Source of the DNA: an uncultured Ignavibacteriales bacterium
Lineage (GTDB): Bacteria; Zixibacteria; MSB-5A5; GN15; FEB-12
Assembly (NCBI GenBank): GCA_964571235.1
Contig: CAZNAI010000003.1
Span: forward strand, 592,700 to 656,699
DNA: 64,000 nucleotides
Direction of reading: 5' to 3'
Shown piece after piece: positions 447 to 58,786 of the stretch. The translations under genes and the position numbers were made by a program. Under the pieces are notes generated by a model. That model was given only the letters and a program-made list of their open reading frames with translations. It was not told the origin of the DNA and searched no databases. Each line of letters begins with the position of its first letter. Position 1 is the first letter of the stretch.

Positions 447-720
447 GGGGCAGGCAGGAAGCCTGCCGCCCACGGAACGAAACGAAGATGTCGGGTTTCT
501 CGGTGCGCCGTTTGGCGCACTCTCGGAACGCCGACCTACGAAGATTACGAGGGGGCAGACGAGGGGGTCTGCCGCCCGCGAGAATCGCGGTCAGGGGGAC
601 GCCTGACCGCGCACCAGGAAAGACGTGGTGCACGGGGACGTACACCACGCACAACCGGAAGTCGACCCTTCGACGAGCTCAGGGTGACTTGAACGGGCAG
701 GCAGGATGCCTGCCGCGCAG
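447..720. repeat. Mosaic of hairpin repeats: A (447-473), B (551-580), E (624-652), F (661-688), A (694-720)
   Basis: Each unit recurs elsewhere in the window, e.g. gggcaggcaggaagcctgccgc[cg]cac at 14211 and 22613, and gcagacgagggNgtctgccgc at 30171, 30255 and 63844. The mosaic lies between two minus-strand genes. Confidence 0.85.
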
Positions 721-14041: not shown

Positions 14042-14322
14042 CCCCTCATCCGGCCTTCGGCCACCTTCTCCCAGAGGGAGAAGGATAGACGCACGCAATC
14101 ATTGATGATTTCGATTAAAATTCCCTCTCCCTCTGGGAGAGGATGTCACGAAGTGACAGGTGAGGGGTTCGTGCGCGGCAGACGCCCTCGTCTGCCCGTC
14201 CGGGCAGGAAGGGGCAGGCAGGAAGCCCGCCGCCCACAAACAAAAAAAAGCCGCGCGTACGCGCGGCTTTTGTATTCGATTGACCCTTGAAATCGTGGCG
14301 CACGAGAATGTACGCCACGCAC
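14042..14322. repeat. Hairpin-repeat mosaic between convergent priA and rplY: K hairpins (14064-14084, 14124-14159), B-rc (14171-14198), A (14211-14237), E (14294-14322)
   Basis: Sequence identity to the A, B and E copies elsewhere in the window. The K hairpins are ccttctccc-aga-gggagaagg and cctctccc-tct-gggagagg. Confidence 0.85.
14242..14271. terminator. Bidirectional Rho-independent terminator (priA / rplY)
   Basis: The sequence aaaaaaaa gccgcgc gtac gcgcggc tttt has an A8 run on one side and a T4 run on the other. Read on the minus strand it is the hairpin followed by T8. Confidence 0.8.
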
Positions 14323-14332
14323 AGGACCAAAT

Positions 14333-19547: not shown

Positions 19548-19602
19548 GAGATTGCTTCGCCGCGTCCTTCGACAAGCTCAGGAAGCCGCGTCTCGCAATG
19601 AC
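19548..19602 (-). repeat. H-family clamp repeat carrying an F-like insert
   Basis: The reverse complement reads gtcattgcgag-acgcggcttcctgagcttgtcgaaggacgcggc-gaagcaatctc. The outer arms are identical to H copies at 31156, 58751 and 39268. Confidence 0.8.
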
Positions 19603-19778
19603 GTGGTGTAACGCTATCCGTGAGAAATCAATCCGAGATACTACCACACCCCGCAATCCTCTGCCGCTCAACCTAGTCCAATGACTCCGCGCGGCCGCGC
19701 ATTTCCTTGTCTGAGACCCACACTCGCATTATCTTCCCCGCGAGAAATATTTCACAAGCTGTGGCTCGGAGGTCATCA

Positions 19779-22451: not shown

Positions 22452-22462
22452 GCAGACGAATC

Positions 22463-22771
22463 TGTCACCCCGGCGAAGGCCGGGGTCCAGAAAGTGGAAG
22501 AAGAAGAGAAGACTGGATTCCGGCCTACGCCGGAATGACAATGTTGTAGCGCGGGTTCGTCTTTGAACCCGCCATTCGTGGCGCACAGGAATGTACGCCA
22601 CGCACATTGGGAACGGGCAGGCAGGAAGCCTGCCGCGCACGTGAAATCGCGTCTCGACTACGCTCGACGCGTCGGTGGAAAAGATGTCGAAACCGCCCTT
22701 CGAGGACTCAGGACTTCACAGGGGTTTCGACCTACGAAGAACAGTAGGGTGGGTCCTTCTTAGAACCCGCC
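22463..22771. repeat. Dense hairpin-repeat mosaic between acnA and fba: J (22463-22490, 22515-22540), C (22546-22573), E (22577-22605), A (22613-22639), G (22646-22673), C-variant (22744-22771)
   Basis: Direct sequence identity with copies of each family elsewhere in the window. Confidence 0.85.
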
Positions 22772-22816
22772 GTTGATTGCGAAAAAATGTGAATGAGAAT
22801 ATGAGAGGAATGAACA

Positions 22817-25508: not shown

Positions 25509-25862
25509 GGGACCCTTCGACAGGCTCAGGGTGAAGTCAGTAGGAGTGCTCAGGGTGAAGTCAGTAGGAGTGCTAAGGGTGAAGTCAAAGAGGGAAGAGT
25601 TGGAAGCTTAGACTTTGACGACAGCGAAATTCGACACGACTTCAGGCTGAGCTTGTCGAAGCCTTCTCCTTGATGACACAAAGTGCGGGAACCGTGCGAC
25701 CCCCACGGGAGTTGTAGAGAATCCTGTTCAGTTTTTGCGCAGTGTGCCGATATTGTAGACGATAGACAGAGGTCAGGTGAGGACGCCTGACGCCACGTGG
25801 TTTGTAGGTCGAAATCCCTTGTCACGCCGAAGGCGTGATCGTCCGAAGGACGAGGTTTCGAC
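25509..25862. repeat. Repeat mosaic upstream of lon: F (25509-25538), 24-bp tandem x2.5 (25527-25587), F-partial-rc (25634-25653), expanded I element (25803-25862)
   Basis: The unit cagggtgaagtcagtaggagtgct occurs in tandem. The I element is tgtaggtcgaaatccc...ggtttcgac, enclosing two small hairpins. Confidence 0.85.
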
Positions 25863-30057: not shown

Positions 30058-30282
30058 TTGAAGAGCCCAACCTAAAAGTTGGGTTACCAAGGCCAAGAAA
30101 AGAATGATGTCAATCTTTATAGTAGGGCGGGTTCGTCTTTGAACCCGCCATGTTAGGAAAGCAAACGAATCGGGCAGACGAGGGCGTCTGCCGCGCACAG
30201 AATTGTAGGGCGGGTTCGTCTTTGAACCCGTCATCTTCGGCAAGGAAATCAAATCGGGCAGACGAGGGTGTCTGCCGCACAC
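30058..30282. repeat. Repeat mosaic upstream of sod: D-rc (30058-30092), then tandem (C+B) x2: C 30122-30149, B 30171-30198, C 30205-30232, B 30255-30282
   Basis: An ~83-bp composite unit is duplicated head to tail with several substitutions. Confidence 0.9.
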
Positions 30283-31039: not shown

Positions 31040-31116
31040 GTGGCGGCGCCAGTAGCGGCGCCACACCGTAATTGTGGCGTAAGGTGCCCTAACCTGACGC
31101 GATTGAGCCGGATTAG

Positions 31117-31215
31117 TTCGCGTCTCGACTACGCTCGACGCGTCGATCGAGGGATGTCGTTGCGAGCGAAGCGAAGCAATCTCTCTTTGTAGGTCGGGAT
31201 CCTTGTGATCCCGAC
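31117..31215. repeat. Repeat mosaic after sod: G (31117-31145), H (31156-31183), I (31188-31215)
   Basis: G is identical to 22646-22673. H shares the gtc[ag]ttgcgag...gaagcaatctc clamp. I is GTAGG followed by tcgggatc/gatcccga. Confidence 0.85.
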
Positions 31216-31271
31216 TTCTTTTTGAATCAAATGCAACACGTGAGCGCCAAACGGAGGCTGACCTACGAAGG

Positions 31272-39188: not shown

Positions 39189-39310
39189 GTGCGTGGCGTA
39201 CAATCATGTGCGCCACCGTTCTGATACTACTATCCGGCGCACGAGGACCTACGCCGGCCACAAAGTAGAGATTGCTTCGCCGCGACGCGGACATCGCTCC
39301 TCGCAACGAC
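39189..39310. repeat. E-rc (39189-39216) and H-rc with enlarged insert (39268-39310)
   Basis: E-rc is gtgcgtggcgtacaatcatgtgcgccac. H-rc is gagattgcttc...ctcgcaacgac. Confidence 0.8.
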
Positions 39311-39360
39311 ATGTCGGTGGCGGCTTGTAAATGTCTATCCGGCGGCGTATCTTGCCGTGA

Positions 39361-46173: not shown

Positions 46174-46239
46174 CCTTGGTAACCCGACCTTTAGGTTGGG
46201 TTCTTCAAAATGGCCGGTTCAAAGCCGAACGCGCCCTAC
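46174..46239. repeat. Composite D (46174-46208) + C-rc (46212-46239)
   Basis: The same two-element composite recurs at 47432-47497. Confidence 0.85.
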
Positions 46240-46281
46240 AAGAACTTGTGGCAATCGCCCCGCGCATGTATCTTCCCGCCC

Positions 46282-47310: not shown

Positions 47311-47537
47311 GTAGGGCAGGAGCCCTGCGCTCCTGCCACCTTATAGTTCTTTTCTTCGTAGGGCAGGCTCGTCTTCGAGCCTGCACTGCTTGGCAGTCCG
47401 CTGAGTTTTCAAAAACTTTGCTTCTTCTGGCCCTTGGTAACCCAACTCTTAGGTTGGGCTCTTCAAGATCGCGGGTTCAAAAACGAACCCGCTCTACACG
47501 GACATTCGACTTCACCCTGAGCTTGTCGAAGGGTCCC
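47311..47537. repeat. Repeat mosaic before tRNA-Ser: M (47311-47337, 47358-47386), D (47432-47466), C-rc (47471-47497), F-rc (47508-47537)
   Basis: The M copies are gtagggcaggagccctgcgctcctgcc and gtagggcaggctcgtcttcgagcctgcac. The other elements are identical or near-identical to copies elsewhere in the window. Confidence 0.85.
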
Positions 47538-47626: not shown

Positions 47627-47715
47627 GGAGAGGTGGCTGAGTGGTCGAAAGCGGCGGTCTCGAAAACCGTTATACCCTTTGGGTATCTAGGGTTCGAATC
47701 CCTACCTCTCCGCCA
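47627..47715 (+). tRNA. tRNA-Ser (anticodon CGA), CCA encoded
   Basis: The sequence is GGAGAGGTGGCTGAGTGGTCGAAAGCGGCGGTCTCGAAAACCG, a long variable arm, then GGTTCGAATCCCTACCTCTCCGCCA. Confidence 0.9.
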
Positions 47716-58601: not shown

Positions 58602-58750
58602 GCCCCAAATCGGTCGTTTTGCACGCACCAAACGTTCTCTATATTAGAGATGATGTCGCCAATGTTGCCAGCCTGCCATTCGAAAGCACACATTAGTGGA
58701 ACGTTATTGCGAGCGCCAATCCGGCCCGATAACACAACACTCGAAAAAAC

Positions 58751-58786
58751 GTCATTGCGAGCGACGCCTCGTCGCGAAGCAATCTC
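58751..58786 (+). repeat. H-family clamp repeat with small hairpin insert
   Basis: The sequence is gtcattgcgag-cgacgcctcgtcgc-gaagcaatctc. Confidence 0.8.

Follow-up and report, generated by a model that had tools for sequence, protein, structure and literature searches.

H, a CGTC-tagged hairpin repeat with a variable tip, and its possible partnership with a small GIY-YIG nuclease

The H hairpin and its distribution

A 64-kb stretch of the genome of an uncultured bacterium that its aconitase homologues place in the Zixibacteria (contig CAZNAI010000003.1, positions 592,700 to 656,699; hereinafter the window; 54% G+C) carries four copies of a short repeat, H, whose anatomy, distribution and link to a gene for a small GIY-YIG nuclease are described here. 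The copies were located by exact-arm and mismatch-tolerant pattern searches. All four are intergenic, two on each strand, and have exact arms, GTC[AG]TTGCGAG on the 5' side and GAAGCAATCTC on the 3' side, around interiors of 6, 14, 21 and 33 nucleotides (nt) (Table 1). An earlier note on this DNA had listed the same four copies, conserved arms and interior lengths, and had placed the core of a second repeat family, F, in the longest interior; both statements are exact in the sequence, the F core matching perfectly at 19566-19581 on the minus strand. The window holds four exact GAAGCAATCTC sites, each paired with a 5' arm, and a search of the window with two mismatches allowed per arm gave no extra H copy. 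By our own arithmetic, a 22-nt two-arm pattern with a gap of 0-40 nt is expected about 6e-7 times by chance in 64 kb, counting both strands. None of the four window copies is a member of a dimer. Rfam 15 at the gathering threshold found two tRNAs only in the window and nothing at H, and no Rfam match with an E value up to 5 overlapped H in seven H-rich loci.

We assembled 545 H copies from 3.2 Mb of sequence. Interiors of 60 nt or less come in 272 distinct forms, 1-49 nt long; about a dozen longer arm-to-arm matches span neighbouring H copies. The collection defines H as a C/TGTC tag followed by ATTGC, GA, G-tip-C, GAA, GCAAT and a tail (CTC or CCAG). At its base the hairpin has the unpaired tag, a 5-bp stem (ATTGC/GCAAT) that starts with A-T pairs at positions 1 and 2, an asymmetric GA/GAA internal loop and a closing G-C pair; two window copies read GTTGC and have a G.T pair at position 1. 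Among 175 copies examined together with their flanks, CATTGCGAG is preceded by GT in 95-98% and, one base further out, most commonly by T (51%); the tail ends in TC or CAG. The full tail is CCAG in many copies; others, the four window copies among them, have CTC. Compensated variants of the stem keep the GAG...GAA core, namely ATTCT/AGAAT (locus L433, Planktothrix) and ATCGC/GCGAT (a sister strain). Readings of the GA/GAA core as attC, IS200/IS605 ends, a K-turn or a hammerhead were dropped by eye, the consensus being a misfit to each.

While the base of H is fixed in sequence, the tip is fixed only as a self-complementary hairpin. Interior lengths in the 545 copies are continuous and cluster at 6 nt (179 copies), at 12-14 nt (165 copies) and at 16 nt. 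In nearly 100% of copies the final interior base is the pairing partner of the last G of GAG, and inner tip positions are paired in 80-100% of copies through several pair types. Covariation within the tip exceeds every one of 200 partner shuffles in the length classes of 10, 11, 14, 16 and 18 nt, five of eight tested. Many of the 12-16 nt forms have a second GA...GA mismatch module after the closing pair. Among 177 viral-contig copies, 51 of the 66 six-nt interiors read CGNAGC, which together with the closing G makes GCGNAGC, an exceptionally stable DNA mini-hairpin.

A tip that needs only to pair with itself is free to drift in length and sequence, and this drift is what the earlier note had called variable cargo. 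Its proposal of either a repeat insertion or a clamp tolerant of insertions holds up in its second half, given constant arms around interiors of all these lengths; the first half finds no support, the interiors being the self-complementary tip of the same hairpin. Aligning all copies also dissolves the expected discrete inserts into a continuum of lengths, which is nevertheless palindromic rather than random. For genome scans in general, a variable interior between constant arms would be the normal sign of a hairpin recognised by its base, not of a nested insertion.

The orientation of H relative to neighbouring open reading frames (ORFs) is unbiased (42 co-oriented, 33 anti-oriented). Of 75 adjacent H pairs, 61 are tail-to-tail with the tags outward, five are head-to-head and nine are tandem; approximately one third of H copies lie within tail-to-tail dimers. 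The lack of orientation bias, the inverted dimers and the lack of an Rfam match together favour a DNA-level element.

The distribution of H was surveyed with the pattern CATTGCGAG-N(0-30)-GAAGCAATC in viral contigs and with a version carrying the leading GT in a one-genome-per-species collection, each of which yielded at least 120 loci. Hosts among the matches listed belong to the Alpha-, Gamma- and Deltaproteobacteria, Chloroflexi, Bacteroidota, Cyanobacteria, Patescibacteria, Zixibacteria, Planctomycetota, Firmicutes and Campylobacterota. Named hosts in the same lists are Bradyrhizobium, which is H-rich, Sphingomonas, Rickettsiales, Chloroflexus, Anaerolineales, Pedobacter, Mucilaginibacter, Flavobacterium, Nostoc, Microcoleus, Pirellulales, Melainabacteria, Helicobacter and Sporomusa. 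Clustering of the genes that neighbour H in the viral and genomic loci recovered only phage structural genes and spurious read-through ORFs, and no integrase.

Near-exact H is present in only six of approximately 50,000 annotated phage records, five of them of the Helicobacter canis prophage type (BK070053-BK070057) and one human faecal (MT835548.1). On phage-like contigs (for example L004, L007, L017, L031 and L040), H often lies in the sense orientation 5-25 nt upstream of the ribosome-binding sites of structural genes, and several copies follow each other on one strand along a gene block.

Judged by its sequence, H fits as a structurally distinct member of the superfamily of CGTC-tagged repetitive extragenic palindromes (REPs). 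The 2013 description of these repeats, which include Neisseria dRS3 and Rickettsia RPE-4 and RPE-6, gives them stems of 8-9 bp and loops of 4-5 nt and concludes that they have no dedicated enzyme (Di Nocera, De Gregorio, Rocco 2013, PMC3733652); no H sequence is present in its supplements. As described there, CGTC REPs share with H the unpaired CGTC/TGTC tag (CCTC is also allowed), a stem beginning with complementary A-T pairs, an intergenic location and a spread over many phyla. Their short unpaired CCA tail and prevalence of inverted dimers are matched by H in part: the CCAG tail and the tail-to-tail pairs occur in the wider collection, and the window copies are solo with CTC tails. In comparison, the H stem is only 5 bp long, is interrupted by the GA/GAA internal loop and ends in a tip of 1-49 nt. 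The window also contains a classic CGTC REP dimer, one unit of which (22513-22540) conforms to the described stem and loop lengths and folds with z = -4.6, which shows that H shares its genome with ordinary superfamily members.

GIY-YIG nuclease genes between inverted hairpins

CGTC REPs have been reported as enzyme-less in that description, whereas the CGTC hairpins studied here bracket a gene for a GIY-YIG nuclease. The gene came to light not through neighbour clustering but through the reading of a single locus in a Planctomycetota metagenome-assembled genome (MAG; L305), where a 96-codon ORF lies between two inverted H copies. For an independent test, 80 metagenome loci were fetched by protein alone (59-73% identical to the query, in 53 distinct flanking contexts). 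With one mismatch allowed per arm, 76 of the 80 loci have H no more than 150 nt from the gene, and the density of H is 8.2 per kb near the gene versus 0.43 per kb further out on the same contigs. The commonest distance from the end of the forward H to the protein match is about 19-22 nt, and in 31 loci the stop codon is followed by the reverse H after 0-6 nt, where TGA|GATTGCTTC complements the H tail ...GCAATCTCA. The copy upstream of the gene usually has the 12-14 nt form and the downstream one the 6-nt form.

Among closer homologues on viral contigs, 28 of 34 are bracketed by inverted CGTC-type hairpins of other sequence (examples from other clades are GTCATTCCCGCGAAAGCGGGAATCCAG, GTCATCCCCGCGAAGGCGGGGATCC, GTCATGGCCGGGCTCGGCCCGGCCATCC and GTCATTCCAGCGAAAGCTGGAATCTC), and none of 28 distant GIY-YIG genes is bracketed by such hairpins. 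Protein identity is 0.68 within a hairpin type versus 0.48 between types, a difference reached in none of 1000 permutations. The same bracketed arrangement is found in the cultured bacteria N. gonorrhoeae (with dRS3-type hairpins), Azospirillum lipoferum 4B, S. meliloti and Planktothrix agardhii, in which the hairpins are of the ATTCT variant. The P. agardhii gene and its H-variant hairpins (TGTCATTCTGAGTGAAACGAAGAATCTC, with tandem partial copies) are on plasmid NZ_LR882964.1 (18456-19513), where the unit is located between an MmeI-type restriction-modification gene and the DISARM gene drmA, in a defence island.

The protein of approximately 95 amino acids (aa) matches the Pfam GIY-YIG family PF01541 (5.9e-18; 65.4 bits against a cut-off of 22.6). 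An alignment of seven proteins has Y9, Y20, G22, R30, H34, E67 and N86 invariant, and in 34 sequences the catalytic residues are invariant or at least 90% conserved. The SLX1-like GIY-YIG fold is confirmed at the level of a predicted structure: the AlphaFold2 model (predicted local distance difference test score 94) is nearest to the solved structure of UPF0213 BH0048, followed by the Slx1 nuclease domain (root-mean-square deviation ~2 Å over ~75 residues), UvrC-N and At-HIGLE. Slx1 cuts branched DNA. The family comprises 10,910 representatives at 50% identity (E up to 1e-3), the best 150 of which are 86-169 aa long, and at least 7,985 clusters at 90% identity. Contigs of about 1 kb carry many of the genes, in line with bounding by repeats.

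Presence/absence polymorphism was observed both for the gene with its hairpins and for H on its own. In A. lipoferum 4B (NC_016623.1, 255118-256196), a REP dimer, the GIY-YIG gene and a second REP dimer, in this order, separate sufB from sufC. The sufB/sufC flanks of A. ramasamyi, Azospirillum sp. B510 and A. brasilense are 89-98% identical and their spacers are short (91 nt in A. ramasamyi), and neither the gene nor CGTC repeats were found in the sufB-sufC spacers of these three relatives; from the sequence comparison, the A. lipoferum unit appears to be an insertion between the two genes. A close strain of the window's source (L515 14021-14263, compared with window 31040-31271) has a spacer downstream of the superoxide dismutase gene without H2 and without the TCGCGTCTCGACTACGCTCGACGCGTCG repeat, and it keeps the GTAG-type terminator hairpin. 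The test for a miniature inverted-repeat transposable element gave polymorphism at H2 and at the A. lipoferum unit, where diverged spacers hide the boundaries and any duplication.

The arrangement is closest to that of the GTAG REPs and their RAYT genes, which likewise combine short tagged hairpins, often solo or in inverted doublets, with one small nuclease-type gene between two inverted repeats whose clade matches the hairpin type. Unlike these, H has the CGTC tag, and its gene encodes a GIY-YIG (PF01541) protein rather than an HUH Y1 transposase; H as a member of the REP/RAYT system itself was rejected on the same two grounds, with no other gene recurring next to H. The catalytic domain is the one found in I-TevI-type homing endonucleases, Slx1, UvrC-N and UPF0213. 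The H-linked protein differs from these in being only ~95 aa long, with no separate DNA-binding domain, and its gene, unlike those of the I-TevI type, is bracketed by hairpin repeats instead of lying in an intron or a phage gene island. Integron attC sites resemble H in being imperfect hairpins whose ends are conserved and whose terminal structure varies, with large differences in length. H as an attC site was rejected, as the arms GTCATTGCGAG/GAAGCAATCTC misfit RYYYAAC/GTTRRRY, there is no second pair of boxes, and no integrase recurs nearby.

We estimate a probability of roughly 0.65 that H is a REP-type hairpin, present in the window as solo copies, whose partner is a GIY-YIG nuclease encoded elsewhere and linked to the hairpins by the bracketing. 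We infer that such a nuclease acts on H by binding, cutting or mobilising it and that the source genome has its gene elsewhere. The enzyme would recognise the conserved hairpin base, either as an extruded hairpin or cruciform junction or as a hairpin on single-stranded DNA, and would nick near the tag; repair of the break would then copy or disperse the hairpin units and the gene. The tip would drift, with intrastrand templated repair keeping it palindromic, and the window copies would be solo, non-autonomous or relic units. Two outward-headed H copies around the nuclease gene would be comparable to GTAG REPs around RAYT genes.

Several observations weigh against this reading. Most H copies are distant from any GIY-YIG gene, and the gene is absent from the 64-kb window. 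The match between protein clade and hairpin type is confounded by host phylogeny and by the sampling of the sets. Near-identical gene copies in different contexts were not found (at most 91% nt identity), and the sample therefore contains no sign of recent transposition. None of the polymorphic sites has a clean target-site duplication or an exact insertion boundary, the surrounding spacers having diverged too far for either to be defined. Finally, three of the four window copies are without significant predicted stability (nearest-neighbour folding z-scores of the four, -1.8 to +1.3) and two are predicted to favour alternative pairings, the predicted fold being canonical for H4 only; the energy model may not credit sheared G.A pairs or GNA loops.

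Among the non-coding repeats of bacteria, REP-type hairpins rank with the commonest, and a partner enzyme, RAYT, is known for the GTAG class only. The physical and clade-matched link described here offers a concrete, biochemically testable candidate for the CGTC class, and the nuclease gene may be the missing partner enzyme of these REPs. No report of a link between GIY-YIG genes and CGTC REPs was found in open-access PubMed Central and bioRxiv, where the 2013 paper on CGTC and GTAG REPs was the only relevant find, and the link appears unreported in the open-access literature searched. It could explain why the same 20-nt hairpin base recurs from Zixibacteria to Bradyrhizobium and phages, and why many genes annotated as 'GIY-YIG nuclease family protein' are on short, repeat-bounded contigs. 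A tentative extension, to which we would give somewhat less than even odds, is that all CGTC REPs (H, the dRS3 type and the alphaproteobacterial units) are non-autonomous partners of this ~95-aa SLX1-like family. If so, they would form a second REP/RAYT-like system with a different nuclease fold, in most bacterial phyla and some phages, and would answer the question, left from 2013, of an enzyme dedicated to CGTC REPs. Neisseria dRS3 repeats also serve as phage integration sites.

The F-tipped copy H1 and rival explanations

The F core, CTGAGCTTGTCGAAGG, has five window sites at up to two mismatches, compared with 0.05 expected. One is in the interior of H1, where 16 nt match exactly in the same orientation as H; the others are free copies. 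An F unit has a variable stem ending in CT/AG and a constant tip, GAGC(T/C)TGTCGA, and F is cosmopolitan in an exact 19-mer search, which returned as full a set of matches as did H. The two families are conserved in opposite ways, H having a constant stem with many tips and F a constant tip with many stems; because these rules are complementary, one hairpin can follow both without any targeting mechanism. The reading of F and H as one family with a common GAGC...CGA core was rejected, hybrids being rare and the conservation patterns opposite. Neither neighbour clustering nor a search between inverted F pairs revealed a cognate gene for F. Read on the minus strand, the F copy at 25514 (window 25509-25571) follows partial 24-nt duplications of its own 5' half, arranged in tandem, and close strains differ in how many they have.

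H1 is an H base with a complete F unit as its tip, and this composite is inherited by related strains. Inside its arms, the closing G-C pair is followed by an A.G mismatch, three CGC/GCG pairs, two GC pairs, the TCCT/AGGA stem and the 11-nt F loop. Strains with 99%-identical aconitase have the same composite with three substitutions in the F loop (GAGACTTTCGA). A strain with 93%-identical aconitase has decayed arms (GTTTTTGCGAG ... GTCGCAATCTC), a fuller F (CACCCTGAGCTCGTCGAAGGG) and CGCG on both sides, and strains at 97% and 87% have a different upstream region in which the composite is absent. The sharing of the composite among related strains indicates that it is old and predates their split, and is not a recent insertion.

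These data bear on the claim of the earlier note that one repeat had inserted into the loop of another through site-specific targeting of hairpin loops, that is, that a mobile F entered a pre-existing H with target-site duplication and that H loops are preferred targets. The nested piece is indeed a complete F unit by the rules of F (TCCT/AGGA stem, constant tip), with an exact 16-nt core, from an independent and cosmopolitan family; a 7-nt direct repeat, ACGCGGC, flanks it, and one other H copy (L434) holds a nested CCTGAGCGTAGCGAAGGG module, with an F-like stem around an H-like core. However, the F loop occurs in one of 545 H copies (H1 itself) and in none of the viral-contig scan, and the density of F is low (0-0.011 per kb) both in the sequence collected around H and near GIY-YIG genes. 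The direct repeat is weak evidence of target-site duplication, since its palindromic CGCG core forms the connecting stem and only three further bases match; the 93%-identity orthologue has CGCG on both sides in otherwise different flanks. The composite predates the strain split, and no orthologous H without F was found. Targeted insertion is unnecessary to explain H1 and finds no support, and we consider this history very unlikely.

An action of H in RNA, through mRNA stability, termination, processing or protein binding, with the nuclease link incidental, would suit an intergenic hairpin that covaries, is often in the sense orientation 5-25 nt upstream of ribosome-binding sites between the structural genes of phage contigs, and in the case of H2 lies just upstream of a terminator-like hairpin. 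It accords poorly with the unbiased orientation relative to neighbouring ORFs, with two of the four window copies being antisense to both neighbours, with the commonness of inverted dimers and with a sequence-specific base that reads differently on the two strands; moreover, GNA triloops dominate rather than GNRA or UNCG tetraloops, H itself is without a T run, and no Rfam family matches, which leaves an RNA role distinctly unlikely. We also regard as unlikely that H spreads or persists by other means while the GIY-YIG gene is a selfish homing-type gene using H dimers as safe sites, as some insertion sequences use REPs. Free-standing GIY-YIG homing endonucleases are well known, the gene occupies the spacer position of a tail-to-tail H dimer, most H copies are without a nearby gene, and the gene copies are diverged, with no recent spread. 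Each protein clade nevertheless matches its own hairpin subtype, although this is expected under both models, and the A. lipoferum hairpins seem to arrive with the gene, the relatives inspected having no REP in the spacer, which argues against insertion into a pre-existing dimer there. Partnership between H and the nuclease remains our preferred reading.

Other features and repeats

Table 1. Copies of H and related repeats in the window
Feature	Position	Strand	Composition	Setting
H1	19548..19603	-	CGTC tag, GTCATTGCGAG + 33 nt + GAAGCAATCTC (arms and interior 19548-19602)	~177 nt upstream of the aconitase start (19779); antisense to both neighbouring genes
H1 5' arm	19592-19602	-		
H1 interior	19559-19591	-		
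H1 3' arm	19548-19558	-		
H1 tip	19565-19583	-	full F-type unit TCCT-GAGCTTGTCGA-AGGA	
F core in H1	19566-19581	-		
H2	31155..31183	+	TGTC tag, GTCGTTGCGAG + CGAAGC + GAAGCAATCTC (arms and interior 31156-31183); minimal form, GTTGC/GCAAT stem, GA/GAA loop, tip a GCGAAGC mini-hairpin	117 nt downstream of the Fe/Mn superoxide dismutase gene
H3	39268..39311	-	TGTC tag, GTCGTTGCGAG + 21 nt + GAAGCAATCTC (arms and interior 39268-39310)	between a GH57-family gene and a SIR2-family gene; antisense to both
H4	58750..58786	+	CGTC tag, GTCATTGCGAG + CGACGCCTCGTCGC + GAAGCAATCTC (arms and interior 58751-58786); tip from the 14-nt interior, clean 6-bp GCGACG/CGTCGC	downstream of a heavy-metal-associated-domain protein gene
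Degenerate H-like unit	58703..58722	+	GTTATTGCGAGCGCCAATCC	48 nt upstream of H4, same orientation
Free F copy	667-682	-		
Free F copy	25514-25529	-		
Free F copy	25647-25662	+		
Free F copy	47517..47532	+		
Classic CGTC REP dimer	22464..22540	.	heads outward, GTCACCCCGGCGAAGGCCGGGGTCCAG ... CTGGATTCCGGCCTACGCCGGAATGACA	
GTAG-type REP	31186..31215	+	TTTGTAGGTCGGGATCCTTGTGATCCCGAC; terminator-like hairpin, then T run	abuts H2

The spacer between the aconitase gene and fba (window 22452-22816) is 365 nt long and densely filled, with five or more kinds of hairpin repeat; among strains with 87-99% identical aconitase, its length is 33-344 nt and its repeat content differs. Other intergenic hairpin families in the window include a GTAG-type REP (GTAGGGCGGGTTCGTCTTTGAACCCGCC, six copies), GGGCAGGCAGGAAGCCTGCCGCGCAC, CGGGCAGACGAGGGCGTCTGCCGCGCAC and GTGGCGCACGAGAATGTACGCCACGCACA, and the families often lie side by side, for example at 30119-30165, 14205-14237, 30158-30199 and 14280-14323. 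A 72-nt repeat occurs twice (46174-46245 and 47432-47503; 82% identical), and its second copy, together with the free F copy at 47517-47532, is just upstream of a tRNA gene (47627-47712). Outside the window, head-to-tail tandem arrays of H and of F have periods of 23-51 nt (Chloroflexus MAG L246, 1330-1900; L051; L153), and truncated units with the 5' arm alone are present in the H arrays.

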